A stretch of DNA of 32,000 nt from Verrucomicrobiota bacterium (GTDB lineage Bacteria; Verrucomicrobiota; Verrucomicrobiia; Chthoniobacterales; UBA6821), in NCBI GenBank assembly GCA_008932965.1, contig WBXG01000006.1, forward strand, positions 8,144 through 40,143, written 5' to 3'. The position numbers were made by a program, and so were the translations under genes. The notes under the pieces are model-generated. The model made no database searches, was not told the origin of the DNA, and saw only the letters and a program-made list of their open reading frames with translations. This document shows positions 5,256 to 22,880 of this stretch, one piece after another; within the stretch, counting starts at the first letter, position 1; each line of letters opens with the position of its first letter.

Positions 5256-5532
5256 GGGTTAACCCGGATATTTCATACTGAATCGTCATGAGGCGCTGCG
5301 AATCCTGATGCAGACACCACCAGCGGTCGGGAGACCGCGGGGGAGACTGCCCTGGCTTTAAGGGGGCAGCACTGAAAGGGCGAGACGAGCGGGAGCAAGC
5401 GAGTCAACGAAGGTGATGGATTGTGACGACGGCTGTATGTTTCATACTGCCCGAGGAGCAATTCGAAGGTCAAGCAGTATCAATCAGGTGTTCGCAAGCC
5501 GCAGCAGAATCGGTATGAAATAGGCGGGTTAA
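5256..5532 (+). mobile_element. Long-form (277 bp) palindromic MITE-like element, intergenic
   Basis: The element runs GGGTTAACCCGGATATTTCATACTGAATCG...CGGTATGAAATAGGCGGGTTAA. It carries the GC-rich internal module, which is near-identical to the one at 6039-6133 (1 mismatch by eye). Indels break the open frames seen in the genic copies. Confidence 0.85.
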
Positions 5533-6353
5533 GATTCTGGTGGTTCCAATAGCCTAATTTTGGGATCGATCCAGCGGCTATCAGGAAAAATCAGGGGAGG
5601 AGTGGTAGTAACGAGGGTTGCTTTTTCTAAAACAAACTCAGGATAAAAAGAATCACTTGCTGGTTCATACACTTTCTCGCCGGAGAAGTGCCCCTCAAGT
5701 TGATACTCATAATTATTATCAGCTCCTATTTGATTTTTTTTTCGGTCAGGAGCTAGCATTTTTTGCTCGTTGAACATGACTAATTGAGACCCTTTCCAAG
5801 GTTTGCTGGGCTCTTTTACCCAGCCCCACATATGATAGTCGACTTTATAAAAACGACGTCCTATGAAGTAGTGACCTGGTGTTTCATTGGCAATGGCCCT
5901 CTTAATGGCAGTACGATCAGAGGCATTTTGCTCAACGATGGTTGTGCACCCAGAAAGAAATAGAAAAAAACCTAACAGTATCCCTAGCCCGAATATTTCA
6001 TACTGATCGTGACGAGGAGGCCGCGAAAGCTGATGGGGCACCACCGGCGGTCGGGAGACCGCGGGGGAGACTGCCCTGGCTTTAAGGGGGCAGCACTGAA
6101 AGGGCGAGACGAGCGGGAGCAAGCGAGTCAACGCAGACACATATTTTGACGCAGGGCTGTGTGTGTACACACTGCCCGAGGAAGACTTCGAGATCAACAC
6201 AGCATCCATCTGACTTCCCGGTCTCCGCAGTAGATCAGAATGAAATATTTGGGCTAAAGCAACGAGGAATGGCTGTTGAAAGAATATTCTATCTTTAGAA
6301 ATTCTTTTTTCATCATGATGACTCTGAGATCGCTCTCGTGGATGATCAGGCAT
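5529..6353 (-). CDS. Putative lipoprotein whose 5' region is occupied by a repeat element (start uncertain, possible pseudogene)
   Basis: The C-terminal roughly 150 aa look like a genuine protein preceded by a lipobox (GILLGFFLFLSGC). Codons 33-123 of the ORF are exactly the 273-nt element at 5985-6257. There is no canonical start codon between the element and the lipobox. Confidence 0.55.
   Translation of the reverse strand: MPDHPRERSQSHHDEKRISKDRIFFQQPFLVALAQIFHSDLLRRPGSQMDAVLISKSSSGSVYTHSPASKYVSALTRLLPLVSPFQCCPLKARAVSPAVSRPPVVPHQLSRPPRHDQYEIFGLGILLGFFLFLSGCTTIVEQNASDRTAIKRAIANETPGHYFIGRRFYKVDYHMWGWVKEPSKPWKGSQLVMFNEQKMLAPDRKKNQIGADNNYEYQLEGHFSGEKVYEPASDSFYPEFVLEKATLVTTTPPLIFPDSRWIDPKIRLLEPPES
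5985..6257 (+). mobile_element. Long-form (273 bp = 91 codons) palindromic MITE-like element inside ORF 5529-6353
   Basis: The element runs TAGCCCGAATATTTCATACTGATCGTGACGAGGAGGCCGCGAAAGC...GATCAGAATGAAATATTTGGGCTAA. It is read on the minus strand as LAQIFHSDLLRRPGSQMDAV...PPRHDQYEIFGL without a stop. Confidence 0.9.
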
Positions 6354-11163: not shown

Positions 11164-11475
11164 ATGATGGATCCTAGTGATGATAAGAAAAATTTTAATG
11201 ATCCATTCTGTGTGATCAAGGATGTCACTATTAAAAATAGTAACGGTTTGCATGCTCGGCCTGCAGCACTCTTTGTGAAGACCGCTAATCAATTTCGTGT
11301 AGAAATTTCAGTAGAAAAAGAGGGAGAGCTTATCAATGGTAAAAGCATCATGGGATTGATGATGCTTGCTGCAGCAAAAGGGTCACAAATACGTCTGATT
11401 GCAAAAGGGGAAGAAGCAGTTGCTGCTATTGCTGCCCTTGAAGCGTTGATCATGAATTGCTTTGGTGAAGTGTAG
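11164..11475 (+). CDS. ptsH: Phosphocarrier protein HPr
   Basis: It has a His-15-type site (NSNGLHARPAALF) and a Ser-46-type site (NGKSIMGLMMLAA). Confidence 0.9.
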   Translation: MMDPSDDKKNFNDPFCVIKDVTIKNSNGLHARPAALFVKTANQFRVEISVEKEGELINGKSIMGLMMLAAAKGSQIRLIAKGEEAVAAIAALEALIMNCFGEV

Positions 11476-11499
11476 CAATAAGCTTTTGCAGCTGCTTTT

Positions 11500-11672
11500 T
11501 ACTCACCCTAATCGTGACGAGGAGGCCGCGAAGGCTGATGGGGTAAGGCAGGCGAGCATTTTGATGCAGGGCTGTATGTGTACATACTGCCCAAATCAAA
11601 ATGGGAGTCTAACGCAGCATCCATCTGACTTCGCGGTTTCCGTAGTAGATCAGTATGAAATATCCGGATTAA
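11500..11672 (+). mobile_element. Short-form palindromic MITE-like element with a degenerate left terminus
   Basis: The element runs ...TAATCGTGACGAGGAGGCCGCGAAGGCTGATGGGGTAAGGCAGG...GTAGTAGATCAGTATGAAATATCCGGATTAA. I count only 6 mismatches against the copy at 27032-27216 over about 160 nt aligned by eye. Confidence 0.85.
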
Positions 11673-11839
11673 CTGAAACAGGTCAAAAAAAAGACAACCC
11701 GCCACACCCAAAGGTGCGACGGGTTGTTGTTCCCCCCAGAACATTCTTTCAATTGATAGAAAAGTATAGTATAGGTAATTCTTTGCAATCCTTTTTTCTC
11801 AATAGAGGAAATATTCACTAGCACCTCCTCTCATTTTCT

Positions 11840-13402: not shown

Positions 13403-13468
13403 GATTCCTTAACTATCACGATGGTTTGACTCTGCTGGAGAACAGATCATGGTTCTAAAGTATATTTA

Positions 13469-13486
13469 TCCGGATATTTCATATGA
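13469..13486 (+). repeat. Solo terminal-repeat remnant overlapping the start codon of the TPR gene
   Basis: TCCGGATATTTCATATGA matches the family terminus CCGGATATTTCATACTGA. The ATG at 13483 lies within it. Confidence 0.5.
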
Positions 13487-13866
13487 AGGTGCATCTTAAT
13501 TCAGACTCTCATCATTCAGAGCTCTTTGATGAAGCAACAGGTGCTCTTGCTATTGGAGATCTTGAAGGTGCCGTCACCCTTTATCAGCAATGTGTCGACT
13601 TAGAGCCTGAATTTTTTGAAGGATGGCATGCCTTAGGAATGGCCTTGATGAAGATAGGTCGCTACTCGGATGCGATCCAAGCAGGATTACGAGCAACGGA
13701 GCTTGCTCCTAACGATCAACTGGCATGGTCAAGCCTTTCTCTTTTTTATGTTCGTAATCACCAAATTCCCGAGGCAGAAGCAGCAGGGGTGAAAGCAAAA
13801 ATTCTTTCATGGGGAGGAAAGATTGCACTTGGTGCTACGCAGAGAAGCCCGGATATTTCATCATGA
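13483..13866 (+). CDS. Small TPR-repeat protein
   Basis: The 127-aa product has TPR-like helices (GAVTLYQQCVDLEPEFFEGWHALGMALMKIGRYSDAIQAGLRATELAPNDQLAW). The last 5 codons (PDISS*) are encoded by a repeat terminus. Confidence 0.65.
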   Translation: MKVHLNSDSHHSELFDEATGALAIGDLEGAVTLYQQCVDLEPEFFEGWHALGMALMKIGRYSDAIQAGLRATELAPNDQLAWSSLSLFYVRNHQIPEAEAAGVKAKILSWGGKIALGATQRSPDISS

Positions 13867-13934
13867 AGTCTCATGCGGCGCTGCTGAGTCATATCGACGC
13901 TGCATTGTCACGATAAGCATGAAATATCTGGGAT
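13846..13934. repeat. Mini (about 89 bp) member of the repeat family
   Basis: The sequence runs AGCCCGGATATTTCATCATGAAG...GTCACGATAAGCATGAAATATCTGGGAT. Both termini are recognisable and the interior is heavily reduced. Confidence 0.65.
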
Positions 13935-14026
13935 CGAAAAATTGGAAAATCCTAGAATTCTCCTCTTATTACGTTTAGCTTCCTTCTCACAGTTTAATTT
14001 TCATTACCAATTTTCACTCTATCATC

Positions 14027-15960: not shown

Positions 15961-18900
15961 GTGAGTACTTCTCCACAACCTCTCTTTTTTGATTGGAAGA
16001 ACCCCTGGCTACCGCCTCTTGCTACCTATTTGCTGCATACGTGGAATCAAGGAACAAGCGCTTCTCAAGAGGATCTTTCTTCAACTGTAGTTGTTCTTCC
16101 TGGTCGTCGTGCGGGAAGGAGGCTTTTAGAGTTATTGGCATTGGAAGCAGAGAAAGAGAAATGGAATTTGAATCCTCCTTCTATTGTGACACTACGCGAG
16201 GCGGTAACCCTACTGTTGAAACCAAGTGAAAAAACTCTTCCCGAAGCGAGTGGCGTATTGCAGCGATTTGCCTGGCGTGAGGCTTTTCGAATGCTTCCGA
16301 AGTATCATCGAGATCATATTCAACCTTTTTCTAAGAAGGTCATTCCTCCAAGAAGTAGTGAGGTGTTGATTGGAATCATAGAATCACTTGCAGAAGAGAT
16401 CGGAAGTAAGGGGCTTGATTTTCATACTGTGGCAGTTCGAGTGGGAGAGGTTTTTCCAGAATCTGCAGAACGAGAGCAACCTCGCTGGGAAGCACTTGCT
16501 TATCTTCAAAAAACCTACCGCAAGATGATGGCTTCATGGGGATATTCTGATCCTGCCGACTTTCTACGTTCTTCTCTCACCCATGGAGAAGTGTCCAAGG
16601 GTGTTCGAGTACTCGTAGCAGGAGTAGTGGAGGCTCCTCCACTTTTTGAATCTTTTTTTGAAAAAATAAAGCCCGCAGTGATTATTATTGCACCTAAGGA
16701 ACATGCGGCAGGCTTTACCAATCATGGATTACTTGTGAAAGAATATTGGTTAGAGCATCCACCAGTGATTCAAGATACAGAGCTCCTTCCATGCGAACGA
16801 AATGAAGATCAAGCAAAGGAGGTGGTTCGATTAATAACCCCTTTTAAGGATAGGAGATCCGAGGTAACTGTTGCTCTCCCAGATTCCTCAACACTCCCCT
16901 TACTACAAACTCGGTTGGCACATGTAGGAGTTACAACTCGATGGGCAGGGGGGCTTCCTTTTCGTGGAGGACGTTTGTATCAACTCTTAAGAGCCATTGC
17001 TCATTTTTTAGATCATCACAACTATTCAGGACCAACAATAGCAGCTCTCAGTGCTCTTGTGCGCCATCCTGATATTTATCCCCATTGCATGGCACCAGAG
17101 GCATTTTTAAAAAAACTTGATCTTTTAGAACGTGAGCATCTCCCGCTCTTTTTAGATAAGGGAAGTCTTGCTTCTTTCAAAAAAAATGAAGACCTCCTTC
17201 TCTGGATAGATGAACTTGAAACCCTCATTGGAATTGGGTCAGAGCCAGTATCGCTAGAGGAGGGAGCATCGAAATTACGAACTCTTTTGCAACATCTTTT
17301 CGGAAAACGGAAGGTACGGGGGAATACTTTTGAGGGGCATTATTTTTTAGGATGCCTCGAGGAATGCTTACACCTGCTAGATGAAATCGAAGAGATGGGT
17401 CCTCATATTTCTGAGCATTTTTCAATGAGTGCCTTTCTAGAAAATCTTCTGGAACTTCTTAAAGAAAAAAATATCCCAGAACAAGAAGAACCAGAAGCAC
17501 TCGAATTACTTGGATGGCTAGAGTTGCAGGCTGATGATGCTCCCTATTGCATCATCACTTCATGCCACGAAGGATCTTTTCCACAGAGTTTAACATCCAA
17601 TCCTTTTTTGTCTCAGGGGCTTCGCTCACGTTTGGGTCTTAGTGAGGAGAGTTTGTTGCTCGCACGTGATCATTATCTTCTTCAAAGTATTATGGCTTCC
17701 CGCCAGGTTATCTTGATAGCACCTCGCTACAATGGTCGTGGAGAACCTGCTCGTCCTAGCCGTCTTTTAATGCTCGGATTGACTTTAGAGGAGTTGCCGC
17801 AACGGGTCCTCCAATTAACACAACCTCTCTTAGCCCCGATATTTCATACTGATCGTGACGAAGAGACTGCGAAGGCTAATGGAGCGGGAGCGAGCGAGTC
17901 AACGCAGGCACGTATTTTGAAGCAGGGCTGTAGGAGTCTGACGCAGCATCCATCTGCCTTCTCGACCTCCGCAGGTGATCGGTATGAAATATCTGGGCTA
18001 AAAGAAGAAAAAATAAAGGAGCGAGCCCTCCCTCATCATGCTTCTCACTTTCATGCACGACCTCTCGGTACAGAAAAGGTCACCTGTGTGACAGTGACAG
18101 GACTCCGGACCTATTTACAATCACCGCGACTTTTTTATCTCCAGCATGTCCTGCGACTTCATGAAGTGGAGGAGGCTCCCCTAGAAATGAATGCTGGTCA
18201 TTTTGGACGACTCATTCATGAGGTCTTAGGAGCTTTTGGGATGGAAGAAAAAAATATCCCGTCAACCGATGCACGAACTTTATCAGAGTGGCTTCGAAGA
18301 AAACTTTTTTCTATAGCAGAGCACTATTTTGCTCCAGGACCCTCTCTTCCGATTCAATTACAATTGGAGGCCATGGCGGAGACCTTAGATGGCTTTGCAC
18401 AAGCTCAAGTAGCCCATTACCAGGAGGGATGGAGAATCATTGCAGCTGAAAACAACCATTACTCTTCATCCCCAGTGATTGAGGAAAAAATGGCACTCGA
18501 TGAGGGAGGCTCTCTTCTGTTACAGGGTCGCATTGATCGTATCGATTGGAATTACAAGCTGAGTCGCTGGATGATTATCGATTATAAAACACGGCACGAT
18601 CAGGAATGGAGCAATGCCACCCCTGATAGAGAACATTTTCAAAAAAAAGGAGAAAAAATTCTTTGGAAAGATCTTCAGCTTCCACTGTATTTAAGACTCT
18701 CTGCTCACTGGAAGGCGATTCAGGAATCAGGGCTTCCTGCTCCCACTATTGAGAATACCGATCTGTGCTACTTTCAGTTACCCATAGAAACGGAGCAAGC
18801 AGGAGTGAGTGAACCATTTGATCCTAAGATGATCCTGCCTGGATGGAATGAAGCACGTCGTATTATGAAAGCGATCGTAGATGGAAATTTTGATGCACTT

Positions 18901-19017
18901 GGAACAATCGAAGCCATACGTATGCCTACCCTTGCTGCTCTCTGTGGAATTTCAATACTAGAACCTAAAAAAAATGGGGTGATTCGCTCGGGGAGTGATT
19001 CAGAAACTATTGAGTGA
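15961..19017 (+). CDS. AddB-like subunit: PD-(D/E)XK nuclease family protein with degenerate helicase-like N-terminus, carrying an in-frame repeat insertion
   Basis: It has a C-terminal nuclease motif (GRIDRIDWNYKLSRWMIIDYKT). It overlaps the downstream UvrD-family gene by 4 nt (GTGA). Size and order match addB-addA/rexB-rexA pairs. Confidence 0.75.
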   Translation: MSTSPQPLFFDWKNPWLPPLATYLLHTWNQGTSASQEDLSSTVVVLPGRRAGRRLLELLALEAEKEKWNLNPPSIVTLREAVTLLLKPSEKTLPEASGVLQRFAWREAFRMLPKYHRDHIQPFSKKVIPPRSSEVLIGIIESLAEEIGSKGLDFHTVAVRVGEVFPESAEREQPRWEALAYLQKTYRKMMASWGYSDPADFLRSSLTHGEVSKGVRVLVAGVVEAPPLFESFFEKIKPAVIIIAPKEHAAGFTNHGLLVKEYWLEHPPVIQDTELLPCERNEDQAKEVVRLITPFKDRRSEVTVALPDSSTLPLLQTRLAHVGVTTRWAGGLPFRGGRLYQLLRAIAHFLDHHNYSGPTIAALSALVRHPDIYPHCMAPEAFLKKLDLLEREHLPLFLDKGSLASFKKNEDLLLWIDELETLIGIGSEPVSLEEGASKLRTLLQHLFGKRKVRGNTFEGHYFLGCLEECLHLLDEIEEMGPHISEHFSMSAFLENLLELLKEKNIPEQEEPEALELLGWLELQADDAPYCIITSCHEGSFPQSLTSNPFLSQGLRSRLGLSEESLLLARDHYLLQSIMASRQVILIAPRYNGRGEPARPSRLLMLGLTLEELPQRVLQLTQPLLAPIFHTDRDEETAKANGAGASESTQARILKQGCRSLTQHPSAFSTSAGDRYEISGLKEEKIKERALPHHASHFHARPLGTEKVTCVTVTGLRTYLQSPRLFYLQHVLRLHEVEEAPLEMNAGHFGRLIHEVLGAFGMEEKNIPSTDARTLSEWLRRKLFSIAEHYFAPGPSLPIQLQLEAMAETLDGFAQAQVAHYQEGWRIIAAENNHYSSSPVIEEKMALDEGGSLLLQGRIDRIDWNYKLSRWMIIDYKTRHDQEWSNATPDREHFQKKGEKILWKDLQLPLYLRLSAHWKAIQESGLPAPTIENTDLCYFQLPIETEQAGVSEPFDPKMILPGWNEARRIMKAIVDGNFDALGTIEAIRMPTLAALCGISILEPKKNGVIRSGSDSETIE
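17830..18001 (+). mobile_element. Intermediate-form palindromic MITE-like element inserted in frame (171 nt = 57 codons) in the addB-like gene
   Basis: The element runs TTAGCCCCGATATTTCATACTGATCGTGACGAAGAG...GGTGATCGGTATGAAATATCTGGGCTAA. It is translated as LAPIFHTDRDEETAKANGAGASESTQARILKQGCRSLTQHPSAFSTSAGDRYEISGL. Confidence 0.9.
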
Positions 19018-22000
19018 TTATGCCTCTTTTTATTCAACGAGCTTCAGCGGGATCAGGTAAAACAGAGCAACTTGCACGCCGTTATTTGCAGATTCTTTTG
19101 AATAAAGATCTCATGGGCTATGAGGTCGATCCAGTTACAATTGTAGCAGCAACGTTTACCCGGGAGGCTGCAGGAGAAATTTTAAATCGTATTTTGAAAA
19201 TACTTTCGACCGCATGTCTGGATAGATCGGTCTGCCAAAGGATTGTCGAAGAGACACCCCTCCCCGTCCCATCACCAATCGAATGCCAACGATTACTCCG
19301 ACGACTCATGGAGCGCATCGATGAGCTTCGTATTGGAACCATCGATTCCCTTTTCGCTCAGCAAGCACGTGCTTTTGTATTGGATCTTGGAATAGCCCCT
19401 CATTGGGAAATTGCAGATAGTCTGACGGTCCATAAACTGGCCCAAAGAACCTTGCTTCATCTCTTGAAGTTAGATCCGCTCTTTGCACAAGATTGGAAGA
19501 TTCTCCACCACTTTCAACGATCCCTTTCCTTGGTGAAAAAAGGGGCTCTTCTTCTTGAAAAAAATCGTTTTGTCGCACGTCATGAGCTACTCGAAACAAC
19601 TCCAGAAAAAAAATCTCCTCCACGAAGGGTTTCAAGAGAAGACCAAACATCGATTCATCACTTTTTTTCCTCATTTCATATTCCTCTTACTGGTCAGGGA
19701 AAACCGAATGGGCATTGGATTGCTGCTATAAAAAAAATAGAAGAGGCTTTTTCTCAACCGCTCTATCTCAAGGATGTATTAGACCATAGTCCTCTTTTCT
19801 CTCAACTACTTCATGAGGAACCCCGTTTTTATGGAAAAGAAATACCACCAGAATTCATTTATTTTTTTTCTCCGTTAATAGAAGCTTCACAAGCTGAACA
19901 ACAACGCTTGGCCTTACTTCGAGAAGGAGCATTGCATCGGCTTGCACACGATTATCACTATCTCCGAAGTGACTATTCCTTTGACGAAGGTCGCTACACT
20001 TTTCAAGAAATTGAAGAAATAGTAAGTCTCTCCTCCCAGAAAATATCTAAGGAGGAAATCGAATTTCAGATGGACCTCTCTACGGAGCATCTCTTAATTG
20101 ATGAATATCAGGATACCAGCGAGCGTCAGCATGCCTTTCTCTCTCCTTTGATTGGAGATGTGCTCGCAAAGGGAGGGGTTGCCTTTGTGGTTGGAGATGT
20201 GAAGCAGGGAATTTATGGATGGCGTGGAGGAAAGCGGCATCTTCTAGGTTCTTTAGAAAAAGACTACGAATCCTATCTTCAAAAAACCAAGCTTCACCAC
20301 ACAAGTTATCGTTCTAGCCCTGCCATTCTAGCAGCAGTGAATCACGTTTTTGAGGCACTCAAAAATTCAGATGTTGTTGAAGGAATGAACGCTGGAGAGC
20401 CATTTAAAGAAGCTGCAGCACGCTGGTCGCTTGAATTTGAACCCCAGGTATCAGCTACTTCTGTTGTTGGCTTAAAAGGGAGTGTCACGCTTCACAAAAT
20501 TCCAGTGGCTCCAGGAGAGCTTCAGAATGAGATCATGGAATTGGTTATTCAAAAAGTAGTGGAGCTAGTAGTAGCTCATCGACGAGAAGATCCATTACGT
20601 GAAATTGCAATTCTTGTGAGACGCACGAAATTTATTCCTTCTCTACTTTTGAACTTACGAGAGAGTGGAATATTAGCAAGTGGAGAGGGAGGCAATCCAC
20701 TCGCTGATACGTTGGCTGTTGAGGTGCTCCTCTCCCTACTCTCATGGATGGAGCATCCAGGAAATTCTGCAGCCTATGAACATGTACACTCATCCCCATT
20801 AGGAGATCTGTTAAAAGAACAGGGAGCTTCCCCCTCCACTCAAGGGGCTGCACTACGTGAACTACTAGTGGATCGGGGTTATGCAACATGCCTGCGTGCC
20901 TGGGCCACACGACCGGTTTTTCAAGAGGCATGCAGTGATTATGAAAAGGAACGCCTGGAACAATTCATAGCAATGGCTTCCCGCTTTGAATTGCTTGGTG
21001 GTGGGGCTCCCTCAGATCTTGTGGCACGGGCACGTGAGGAGCGCGTGGAGAGCCCTTTAAGTCGTGGAGTGAGGGTGCTTAGCATGCATGCTGCCAAGGG
21101 GCTCGAGTTTGAAAGTGTTGTTCTCATGGATCTCGACACCTCTATTTTTGGTGGGAGTGCCCATGCAATGCGTGTTCAAACAACAGATGATGGAAAATTC
21201 TTTATTCAGAATAATCGTGAAATGACCTTGCTACAAGGGAGAGAGCATTTATTAAAAATCCATCAAGAGGAGCAATGGGAGGAGGCATTGAGCCTCCTTT
21301 ATGTGGCGATGACACGAGCGATTTGCTTTTTAGATATTGTGCTCATGGACGATGTGAACCGGAAAATTCCAAAAAAAAGCATGGCAGGATGGCTACGTGT
21401 CTCTGGGCTTGAAGACCATCAACATGATGGTCTTTCGTTACGCGAGCAAAGAACAAAAACAGCTCTAGCCCCCATATTTCATACCGATCTACTACGGAAG
21501 CCGGGAAGTCAGATGGATGCTGCGTTGAGCTCGAAGTCTTCCTCGGGCAGTAGGGACTCATACAGCCCTGCGTCAAAATATGTGTCTGCGTTGACTTGCT
21601 CGCTCCCGCTCGTCTCGCCCTTTCAGGGCTGCCCCCTTAAAGCCAGGGCAGTCTCCACCGCGGTCTCCCGACCGCCGGTGGTGCCCCATCAGCTTTCGCA
21701 GCCTCCTCTTCACGATCAGAATAAAATATGCGGGCTAGAAAGTAATAGTGATAAGAAAAAGCCGTGTTCGTTCGAGGTAACCTCACTTCAAAGGTCTCCA
21801 CTATTGCTGAAGCGAACCCCCTCCAAAGAAAATCAAAAAGGGCTTCATGCGTTATCTGACTATTTTTATGATCGGAAAGCCCGTTCCTATGGAATCGTCC
21901 AGCATCGTGCACTAGCTCAGATAGAATGGATTAACAGGACTGCATCTCATCCATTGAACGAAATACTAGAGAAGAAAGAAGATCATGCTGTTTTTGATGA

Positions 22001-22298
22001 GGAGTATTTTTTCTCTAAATGGAAAAAATGGGGAATTACCACATTGGAGGTCTGGAGGGAGCGGCGCTTTGCTGTGATTCAAAAAAACGAACTACTCGTA
22101 GGGACTTTTGATCGAGTTATTATAGGTTCCCTTGAAAAACCCATGGTGGCTGAAATCGTCGATTTTAAAACAGCTCCAGCCCAGGACAAAGAGCGACGTT
22201 GTCATCACTACGAGCTGCAGCTCGAGGAGTATCGAAAGGCTCTTCAACATTTGCTTCCAACATTAAGACACATTGAAACAAAAGTTGTTTGGATTTAA
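19014..22298 (+). CDS. AddA-like UvrD/PcrA-family helicase with C-terminal PD-(D/E)XK nuclease, carrying an in-frame repeat insertion
   Basis: Helicase motifs present are ASAGSGKT, LIDEYQDTS, VGDVKQGIYGWRGG, MHAAKGLEFESVVL and LLYVAMTRA. The C-terminal nuclease motif is GTFDRVIIGS...AEIVDFKT. The start is GTG 19014 or ATG 19020. Confidence 0.85.
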   Translation: MIMPLFIQRASAGSGKTEQLARRYLQILLNKDLMGYEVDPVTIVAATFTREAAGEILNRILKILSTACLDRSVCQRIVEETPLPVPSPIECQRLLRRLMERIDELRIGTIDSLFAQQARAFVLDLGIAPHWEIADSLTVHKLAQRTLLHLLKLDPLFAQDWKILHHFQRSLSLVKKGALLLEKNRFVARHELLETTPEKKSPPRRVSREDQTSIHHFFSSFHIPLTGQGKPNGHWIAAIKKIEEAFSQPLYLKDVLDHSPLFSQLLHEEPRFYGKEIPPEFIYFFSPLIEASQAEQQRLALLREGALHRLAHDYHYLRSDYSFDEGRYTFQEIEEIVSLSSQKISKEEIEFQMDLSTEHLLIDEYQDTSERQHAFLSPLIGDVLAKGGVAFVVGDVKQGIYGWRGGKRHLLGSLEKDYESYLQKTKLHHTSYRSSPAILAAVNHVFEALKNSDVVEGMNAGEPFKEAAARWSLEFEPQVSATSVVGLKGSVTLHKIPVAPGELQNEIMELVIQKVVELVVAHRREDPLREIAILVRRTKFIPSLLLNLRESGILASGEGGNPLADTLAVEVLLSLLSWMEHPGNSAAYEHVHSSPLGDLLKEQGASPSTQGAALRELLVDRGYATCLRAWATRPVFQEACSDYEKERLEQFIAMASRFELLGGGAPSDLVARAREERVESPLSRGVRVLSMHAAKGLEFESVVLMDLDTSIFGGSAHAMRVQTTDDGKFFIQNNREMTLLQGREHLLKIHQEEQWEEALSLLYVAMTRAICFLDIVLMDDVNRKIPKKSMAGWLRVSGLEDHQHDGLSLREQRTKTALAPIFHTDLLRKPGSQMDAALSSKSSSGSRDSYSPASKYVSALTCSLPLVSPFQGCPLKARAVSTAVSRPPVVPHQLSQPPLHDQNKICGLESNSDKKKPCSFEVTSLQRSPLLLKRTPSKENQKGLHALSDYFYDRKARSYGIVQHRALAQIEWINRTASHPLNEILEKKEDHAVFDEEYFFSKWKKWGITTLEVWRERRFAVIQKNELLVGTFDRVIIGSLEKPMVAEIVDFKTAPAQDKERRCHHYELQLEEYRKALQHLLPTLRHIETKVVWI
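21465..21738 (-). mobile_element. Long-form palindromic MITE-like element inserted in frame (273 nt = 91 codons) in the addA-like gene
   Basis: The element runs CTAGCCCCCATATTTCATACCGATCTACTACGGAAGCC...CACGATCAGAATAAAATATGCGGGCTAG and includes the GC-rich module (21589-21683). It is translated as LAPIFHTDLLRKPGSQMDAALSSK...PPLHDQNKICGL. Confidence 0.9.
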
Positions 22299-22474
22299 CC
22301 CGCATATTTCATACCAATCACCTGTGGAGATCGGGTCAGATAGATGATGCGTTCATCTCAAAGTCTTCCTCAGGCAGTGTGTACACGCGCATATGTCGTC
22401 AGACTTCATCGCTCGTCTTGCCCTATCAGCCTCGAGACCTCCTAGTCACGATCAGTATGAAATATCCTGGCTAA
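22295..22474 (-). mobile_element. Palindromic MITE-like element (180 bp) abutting the addA-like stop codon
   Basis: The element runs TTAACCCGCATATTTCATACCAATCACC...GTCACGATCAGTATGAAATATCCTGGCTAA. The addA-like TAA (22296-22298) is within its terminal TTAA. Confidence 0.85.
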
Positions 22475-22748: not shown

Positions 22749-22880
22749 TTAGCCTAAATATTTTATACTGATCGTGACGAGGCGGCCGTGAAGACTGATG
22801 GGGCAAGACTTCGAGATCAACGCAGTAATGAGGAGCTTTCCACAAGCCGTAATAGATTTAGTGTGAAATATCCGGGTTAG
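22749..22880 (+). mobile_element. Internally deleted (132 bp) variant of the palindromic element
   Basis: The element runs TTAGCCTAAATATTTTATACTGATCGTGACGAGGCGGCCGTGAAGACTGATGGGGCAAGACTTCGAGATCAACGCAG...TTAGTGTGAAATATCCGGGTTAG. The same variant occurs in reverse at 31869-32000. Confidence 0.8.

Follow-up and report, generated by a model that had tools for sequence, protein, structure and literature searches.

Introduction

Palindromic repeats lying in frame within protein-coding genes have hitherto been treated as a peculiarity of Rickettsia. The palindromic elements of Rickettsia (RPE; Ogata et al. 2000, 2002, summarised in PMC10969869 and PMC3184786) are short, hairpin-forming, high-copy repeats of about 105-150 bp. 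They occur in intergenic DNA and often in frame in unrelated housekeeping genes, where they contribute a peptide typical of the family at positions that the fold can accommodate, while the host genes remain under selection. A 2024 review of MITEs (transposable elements of the miniature inverted-repeat kind) only conjectures similar elements elsewhere (PMC10969869). The subject of this report is a stretch of 32,000 nucleotides (the window) from an uncultured lake bacterium of the Verrucomicrobiota, order Chthoniobacterales (contig WBXG01000006.1, assembly GCA_008932965.1), and in particular the segment 17830-18001 on the plus strand, which lies in a gene for an AddB-like nuclease subunit. This segment is very probably a non-autonomous DNA transposon (MITE) that was inserted in frame at a TA dinucleotide within the linker of AddB and left the protein functional. 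It belongs to an apparently undescribed family that combines RPE-like behaviour with an anatomy of the Correia/IS630 type.

Like RPE, the Chthoniobacterales family consists of short, hairpin-forming, high-copy repeats (170-270 bp) which are found both between genes and, often, in frame in unrelated housekeeping genes, with a family-specific peptide at fold-compatible sites of hosts that remain under selection. A palindromic repeat in frame in unrelated coding genes is thus seen in both cases, and translation is suggested here by reading frame and selection. The link to RPE is one of behaviour as described in the 2024 review and by Delihas (2011); Rfam and Pfam give none. Unlike RPE, which reside in an obligate intracellular alphaproteobacterium, the family is hosted by Chthoniobacterales from lake and soil metagenomes. 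It also differs in having 25-nt terminal inverted repeats (TIRs), TA flanks and tandem arrays that share a TA, which are features of cut-and-paste MITEs, and in having one frame that is open both ways.

Correia elements (CREE) of Neisseria duplicate TA on insertion, and their transcripts are processed by RNase III. They resemble the present family in being MITEs with TIRs of about 26 bp, TA at both termini, long and internally deleted forms, hundreds of copies, stable RNA hairpins and no known cognate transposase. Their size (100-160 bp), class, IHF-binding site and promoters have been described (PMC3184786). In contrast to the copies treated here, Correia elements are essentially intergenic, where they supply promoters, IHF sites and RNA processing, and are not known for read-through in coding regions. 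The MITEs derived from IS630/Tc1-mariner elements, such as Nezha of cyanobacteria, share with the family a TA target with apparent TA duplication, TIRs, small size and non-autonomous nature. The flanking YTAR (TTAA/CTAG) of the family resembles the CTAG target of IS630. Unlike in those MITEs, a search of the available sequence brought to light no transposase of the IS630 type whose TIRs match. In-frame MITEs have further been reported in Coxiella (QMITE1/2, PMC5896051), in enterobacteria (intragenic ERIC/YPAL, Delihas 2007) and in Anabaena. With these the family has in common occasional in-frame fusions and the annotation of 'hypothetical proteins' over intergenic copies. The in-frame cases of these other systems are few and mostly concern hypothetical genes or gene ends, whereas here at least 13 hosts supported by Pfam, including essential enzymes, were found in 730 kb. 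Literature searches turned up no account of a family of this kind from either Verrucomicrobiota or Chthoniobacterales.

The copy in the AddB-like gene

An nhmmer profile of the family was built from 40 copies of other genomes. The segment 17830-18001, a full copy of subfamily F, matches it over its full length (model positions 1-184, E 4.5e-35), and BLAST and a repeat finder likewise mark it out as a copy of a dispersed repeat. Copies elsewhere lie in both orientations, which bears out the original prediction that a repeat had entered the gene. As had also been predicted, the copy starts on a codon boundary (15961 + 3 x 623 = 17830) and spans 171 nt, or 57 codons with 0 stops, from the TTA at 17830 to the CTA at 18000. 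The reading is TTA GCC CCG ATA TTT CAT ... GAA ATA TCT GGG CTA, and the frame-0 translation (residues 624-680) is LAPIFHTDRDEETAKANGAGASESTQARILKQGCRSLTQHPSAFSTSAGDRYEISGL.

The repeat unit has the format Y-TA-[core]-TA-R. In the AddB copy it is T-TA-GCCC...GGGC-TA-A, 172 nt in length. The left TIR, TTAGCCCCGATATTTCATACTGATC (17830-17854, plus strand), encodes L-A-P-I-F-H-T-D and contains a putative target-site duplication, TA, at 17831-17832. The right TIR, GATCGGTATGAAATATCTGGGCTAA (17977-18001, plus strand), encodes the closing R-Y-E-I-S-G-L and contains the putative second target TA at 17999-18000. Both are 25 nt long, and in a self-comparison positions 1-25 match positions 148-172 with 92% identity. 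The whole copy folds as a single imperfect hairpin of -76.4 kcal/mol (z -5.9). Its GC content is 52.9%, versus 44.6% in the remaining AddB gene.

The net gain of the gene was probably 168 nt (56 codons), with duplication of the TA and with the Leu codon TTA already present. This follows from the unit Y-TA...TA-R, from tandem pairs of elements that share a TA (see below) and from the arithmetic of the frame. The site before insertion would have read CTC TTA AAA, and the expected unoccupied site would be ...CTCTTAAAAGAA.... The original figure of a 57-codon insertion therefore stands for the span of the repeat and probably not for the net gain.

On this basis the following course of events is proposed. 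A MITE with a core of about 166 nt and 25-nt TIRs would have inserted at the TA inside a Leu codon TTA of the AddB linker. With the TA at codon positions 2-3, the copy would be read in its third frame, which is open in both orientations. Read-through would then add L-x-x-IFHTD ... YEISGL without frameshift or stop, because the element has one open frame and its net lengths are multiples of three.

The family in Chthoniobacterales

A scan of the GTDB species genomes with TTTCATRCYGATCGTGACGA gave at least 95 stretches. Among the matches listed, nearly all are in Kiruna_bin-02438, Tobar2m-G38, Deming_bin.170 and SMAG_U8253, all of which are metagenome-assembled genomes (MAGs) of Chthoniobacterales. 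In 730 kb of Chthoniobacterales MAG sequence 141 full elements were delimited. Counted as Y-TA...TA-R they are 132-382 nt long and most often measure 184 nt (57 copies); the lengths of 89 of the 141 are congruent to 1 modulo 3. The end logo of the 141 copies gives the conserved ends as Y-TA-RCCCnnATATTTCATAC. Of the left and right ends alike, 95-97% carry TA. The outermost bases Y and R show a correlation, TTAA and CTAG being over-represented. The hairpin of the family consensus has -109.7 kcal/mol (z about -12).

The consensus sequences of subfamilies F and T2 can be read through in frame 0 whichever way they point. Of the eight remaining frames, seven contain 4-6 stops each, and forward frame 2 of T2 contains one. 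The closure of two of the three frames is due to stops in the TIR at each end, namely Y|TAR together with GTA|TGA or GGC|TAA. In the 184-nt copies 77% of the orientation-reads have an open frame 0, as opposed to 16% after shuffling of the interior, and 56 of the 70 extragenic copies of compatible length are open as well. Variability among copies is 0.48, 0.58 and 0.57 bits at the three codon positions. As there is no third-position excess, the peptide itself is not under protein-level selection. If the TA is duplicated, an insertion adds 168, 180 or 270 nt net, each a multiple of three; this model is favoured because no symmetrical model without target-site duplication gives net lengths divisible by three. 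The mobilising transposase may be of the IS630/Tc1-like type, an assignment made from the target site only.

Twenty of the 141 copies lie inside long open reading frames (ORFs). Nineteen have a frame-compatible length, and all 19 are in frame 0. Whatever the orientation of the element, the intragenic frame-0 inserts start with L-(T/A)-(R/P)-IFHTD and end with (Y/C)-E-I-(S/C)-G-L. The exception is a copy of 189 nt (L095 4890-5078), which is one base off register, with MISPHISY... at its left end and HEISGL at its right end. In GlnD the insert is placed between the HD and ACT domains (L027 3867-4050) and in PheT between tRNA_bind and B3_4 (L029 3792-3975), while in Dxr (L088 2769-2952) and LMW-PTP (L022 5002-5185) the Pfam domain itself is split. 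Further hosts supported by Pfam are PyrF, AroD, a PMT glycosyltransferase and a permease, to which the AddA of the window is added. The AddB of the Kiruna MAG also carries a copy, at a different site from that in the window AddB.

The host proteins and their linkers

The AddB-like host gene (15961-19017, plus strand) is intact for 1018 aa, as the original prediction had it, and encodes an inactivated-helicase fold followed by a PD-(D/E)XK nuclease. Pfam PDDEXK_1 (PF12705) covers residues 711-945 (E 5e-21). The best Foldseek match of an AlphaFold2 model is AddB of Bacillus subtilis (4ceh_B, E 2.3e-25), and the top five matches are all B. subtilis AddB chains (E about 2e-25). The curated equivalog models addB_alphas and addB_Gpos were not reached (TIGR02786, 70.8 bits versus a cut-off of 486.5; TIGR02773, 21.4 versus 903.7), so the protein is labelled AddB-like.

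The AlphaFold2 model, based on 120 sequences, has a mean predicted local distance difference test score (pLDDT) of 88.4 and a predicted template modelling score (pTM) of 0.85. Its sole internal stretch of low confidence, residues 626-693, is devoid of secondary structure and comprises the insert and the native linker. The insert therein is predicted to be disordered, the outcome of a structural check that the original prediction had proposed. It stands between the helicase-like part, whose last helix is 611-620, and the PD-(D/E)XK domain, in agreement with the inter-domain linker that had been suggested. The stretch from helicase to nuclease has 89 aa in the window protein; in the 120-sequence alignment it runs from 29 to 112 aa, with 39 as the median. 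On this reading the linker is permissive and carries the roughly 56 added residues as a disordered loop at the protein surface.

The neighbouring gene, whose start overlaps the AddB stop, encodes an AddA-like helicase-nuclease of the UvrD/RecB type (19014-22298, plus strand; Pfam UvrD-helicase, UvrD_C and PDDEXK_1; NCBIfam). It contains a second in-frame copy (21465-21738, minus strand; residues 816-906), which is of the long form, with a span of 274 nt and a net length of 270 nt. The orientation is opposite to that of the AddB copy, and the sequence is 91% identical to 5984-6257. The insert of about 90 residues is LAPIFHTDLLRKPGSQ...NKICGL and, as in AddB, is found in the linker that precedes the nuclease domain. 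It is lacking in 82 of 84 orthologues, one of them 87% identical, and present in a strain with 98% identity. The AlphaFold2 model of AddA (pLDDT 84.0) is unstructured (pLDDT <50) only at 818-928 and at the three residues 940-942. The AddA site of L001, a contig of a syntenic relative, was considered as an empty site and set aside, its lysine-rich linker being too diverged for a reading of the junction.

Alternative explanations

Copies in the equivalent pre-nuclease linker of both subunits, and an AddB site that is occupied both in the window and in the relative (contigs L001 and L002), could suggest co-option, in which the added loop, or the shared ends L-x-x-IFHTD...YEISGL, would serve AddAB as a longer nuclease tether or a recognition tag. 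This is unlikely. The two AddB inserts are essentially unrelated in their interior (pN 0.52 versus pS 0.67), and the family shows no constraint by codon position. The AddA copy is missing from the 87%-identical relative, and full disorder is predicted for the AddB and the AddA insert of the window.

An intact ORF could be owed solely to the element's having an open frame, and the insertion might also have inactivated AddB, leaving a young pseudogene or a crippled protein. This is quite unlikely, as AddB outside the insert has evolved with a ratio of nonsynonymous to synonymous divergence (dN/dS) of 0.22 versus L001 (dS 0.65), near the 0.17 of AddA and the 0.145 of dnaX. The residues D859, D862, D874, K876, Q906 and Y910, which are among those invariant in the family, are all retained. 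The linker varies naturally in length, and the domains of the model are unperturbed. Because the AddB site of L001 is also occupied, the low dN/dS argues for an AddB that is functional with an occupied site. The suggestion that the insertion is tolerated is strengthened accordingly by the invariant nuclease residues, the dN/dS and the identical proteins of three assemblies.

That the insert is taken out of the mRNA or of the finished protein, through intron-like or intein-like splicing or through hairpin processing with religation, is very unlikely. The RNA would be a very stable hairpin of 170 nt, of a type that RNases recognise; cleavage by RNase III would, however, destroy the message and not splice it. 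Rfam, intron families included, has 0 matches in the window, and Pfam finds no domain in the insert and no intein or Hint domain. An intein could not be as short as 57 aa, and the segment is followed by Lys, not by Cys, Ser or Thr. Moreover, one open frame and lengths divisible by three in intragenic copies only make sense if these are translated. RPE are reportedly retained in the mRNA. Their in-frame copies are treated as translational fusions (PMC10969869). For the AddB insert, translation is likewise indicated by the lack of a stop, by the need for both protein halves in one frame and by the filter on frame and length that is seen among intragenic copies.

An ancestral or lineage-specific segment of AddB (a domain or a linker expansion), and not mobile DNA, is extremely unlikely. 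At this position a relative with 76% identity does have some 60 additional residues whose ends are similar (LLTRICDTD...YEIGGL). Its segment is, however, a copy of 184 nt from the different subfamily T2, with 90-94% DNA identity to paralogous copies in its own genome (L001) and to copies in other MAGs, and not a conserved domain. The segment is absent from 118 of 120 AddB orthologues, which are PD-(D/E)XK proteins in MAGs of Chthoniobacterales and other Verrucomicrobiota. In alignments of 22 and of 120 sequences the insert columns are filled only in the window protein and in the relative P0002; of the remaining orthologues 72 have zero residues there and 45 have fewer than 10. The clean gap expected by the original prediction is thus present. 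At the DNA level the copies occur in either orientation, in intergenic DNA and in unrelated proteins, and without codon periodicity. Among 1.84 billion representative proteins the insert peptide has 32 weak matches (E <= 0.001), most of which are short ORFs called over intergenic copies. A search with the consensus peptide in a set of 5.8 billion proteins was tried for host counts and abandoned, as it returned mainly spurious short ORFs of the same kind.

Hardly credible, finally, is a misassembly, a possible source named by the original prediction. Contigs of the organism do stop within other copies, as L003 and L004 do at 22749-22880, which shows that the repeats interrupt assemblies rather than produce the AddB junction. 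But two contigs from other samples encode the identical AddB protein, with 99.4% nucleotide identity over 16.9 kb and 0 indels, so that the insert is common to three independent assemblies. A different species has an element at the same TA, and the junctions keep frame and flanks exactly.

Other lineage-specific inserts, unrelated to this one, were seen in the AddB orthologues P0005, P0009, P0007, P0024 and P0017. P0005 and P0009 have ...CAPSAPSPSPAAATLKTGS at the same AddB position, and the insert of P0024 is IFHGGPSPGS...RERCGL. These inserts may represent further in-frame repeat families.

Insertion of a MITE at TA in the AddB linker, with retention of function, remains the best explanation. 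Several observations weigh against it. Two concern the transposase, for which no cognate was found: pairs of TIRs 420-3000 nt apart enclose ordinary genes (an MBL-fold protein, a membrane protein), and the 730 kb contain no multi-copy ORF, an all-versus-all comparison of 440 ORFs of at least 200 aa having given orthologues only; the MAGs are incomplete in both cases. Five to six of the 20 'intragenic' ORFs are only tandem arrays of open-frame elements, and about 13 have hosts supported by Pfam. The hairpin of -76 kcal/mol within the mRNA could be a target of RNase III, and we infer translation from the frame. The unoccupied AddB site, searched as the joined flanks AACASARCCTCTCTTAAAAGAAGAAAA, had 0 matches in the metagenome scan; as no empty site was recovered, we infer the TA duplication and the exact net length. 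Lastly, the relative of 76% amino-acid identity (L001 and L002) has its element at exactly the same TA of AddB, CTC-T|TA|...|TA|A-AAG.

Shared sites and tandem pairs

The last of these points extends to other sites. The occupied positions 17830, 22295, 22749 and 11490 of the window correspond to 11870, 16074, 16539 and 5507 of L001. The pattern of AddB recurs at three or more further sites: at 22295, 22749 and 11490 the window has F copies that are mutually 55-91% identical, and L001 has T2 copies that are mutually 90-96% identical. The L001 copies must be younger than the split of the lineages, because the flanks have a dS of 0.65. It is implausible that at several sites the two lineages were hit separately in one and the same TA. 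Orthologous sites with different subfamilies point instead to replacement or homogenisation of copies in place.

Eight tandem pairs share exactly one TA, in the arrangement GGGY-TA-RCCC; those listed are in L014 (4165-4526), L099 (6878-7241), L022, L048, L081, L087, L091, L093 and L095. In L014 the arrangement is flank-TA-F-TA-T2-TA, whereas the sequence of about 95% identity in L001 (20714-20897) is flank-TA-T2-TA. The extra F copy of L014 is a presence/absence polymorphism, and the difference indicates that the unit of gain is the core plus one TA. New elements seem to favour the TA next to a resident copy as their place of landing, and the tandem arrays suggest the likely route. A newcomer would insert at that TA and stay in frame, each unit being open and a multiple of three in length, whereupon one of the two would be lost. 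Replacement of an old insertion at the shared TA is likewise the likeliest history of the AddB site; this route would imply that the site has been occupied since before the lineages split.

Two comparisons were discarded. The apparent empty site in L084 versus L010 proved to be a different element in diverged paralogous DNA. The orientations of F and T2 gave 64% versus 68%, too weak a difference, and no inversion is claimed for the AddB copies.

Other copies in the window

Besides the AddB copy the window contains at least 10 copies or fragments of the family (BLAST, repeat finder, nhmmer), and the copies and fragments listed by nhmmer make up about 6.4% of its length. Two long-form copies of 274 nt, both on the plus strand, are at 5259-5532 (BLAST, nhmmer) and at 5984-6257, the latter inside a called hypothetical ORF of 274 aa on the minus strand. 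A copy with a degenerate left end (11490-11672, plus strand; nhmmer) lies between genes for HPr and a SurA-like protein. A canonical copy of 184 nt (27032-27215, plus strand; nhmmer E 4e-62) lies just upstream of a gene for an RNase R-like protein. Two adjoining partial copies occupy 31788-31997 (minus strand; nhmmer), and nhmmer places further copies or fragments at 2768-2808, 13846-13934 and 29506-29539.

The copy at 22295-22474 (minus strand; nhmmer) begins exactly at the stop codon of AddA. This stop, TAA (22295-22298), consists of the target TA and the first base of the element. As the element base after the TA is R, a stop codon is restored whenever TAA or TAG is the stop that receives the insertion. 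At 22749-22880 (plus strand) follows a copy of 132 nt with an internal deletion; it is the one within which two independent assemblies end. L001 and L002 agree completely as far as an element and part after 16255, where each runs on into a gene neighbourhood of its own. Breaks in assemblies, or true points of rearrangement, are therefore marked by repeat copies.

A small gene for a TPR protein (13483-13866) has a solo TIR upstream and the degenerate, internally deleted copy 13846-13934 downstream. This bracket (13466-13935 in the window) is also kept in the relative (L001 7466-7987). The ORFs 5529-6353 (minus strand), 11462-11821 (plus strand) and 26975-27340 (plus strand) cross repeat copies and have 0 Pfam matches; public assemblies annotate them as genes. 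Likewise, many 'hypothetical proteins' of 57-107 aa in the protein databases are translated intergenic copies.

Implications

The window presents a second family of in-frame coding palindromes, apparently unrelated to RPE and abundant in environmental Verrucomicrobiota. Copies are carried by the two subunits of a single repair complex and by the essential enzymes PheT, Dxr, GlnD, PyrF and AroD. The copies break metagenome assemblies, give rise to spurious 'hypothetical proteins' and inflate the lengths of MAG proteins. The family also offers a system for questions on translation-compatible selfish DNA, on the tolerance of proteins to loops of 56-90 residues and on resident copies as landing pads.

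A wider reading is put forward tentatively. The family could be an independent counterpart, in free-living bacteria, of the coding palindromes of Rickettsia, made harmless to genes by its shape: one frame open both ways, net lengths divisible by three, and ends that turn a Leu codon into Leu...Leu. The TA of a resident copy would act as a landing pad, through which copies in essential genes could be exchanged in frame for newer subfamilies. If true, this would explain how lineages separated by a dS of 0.65 carry different young subfamilies at identical TAs, and it would represent an ongoing and general way for selfish DNA to supply housekeeping proteins with loops, and to renew these, across a bacterial order.

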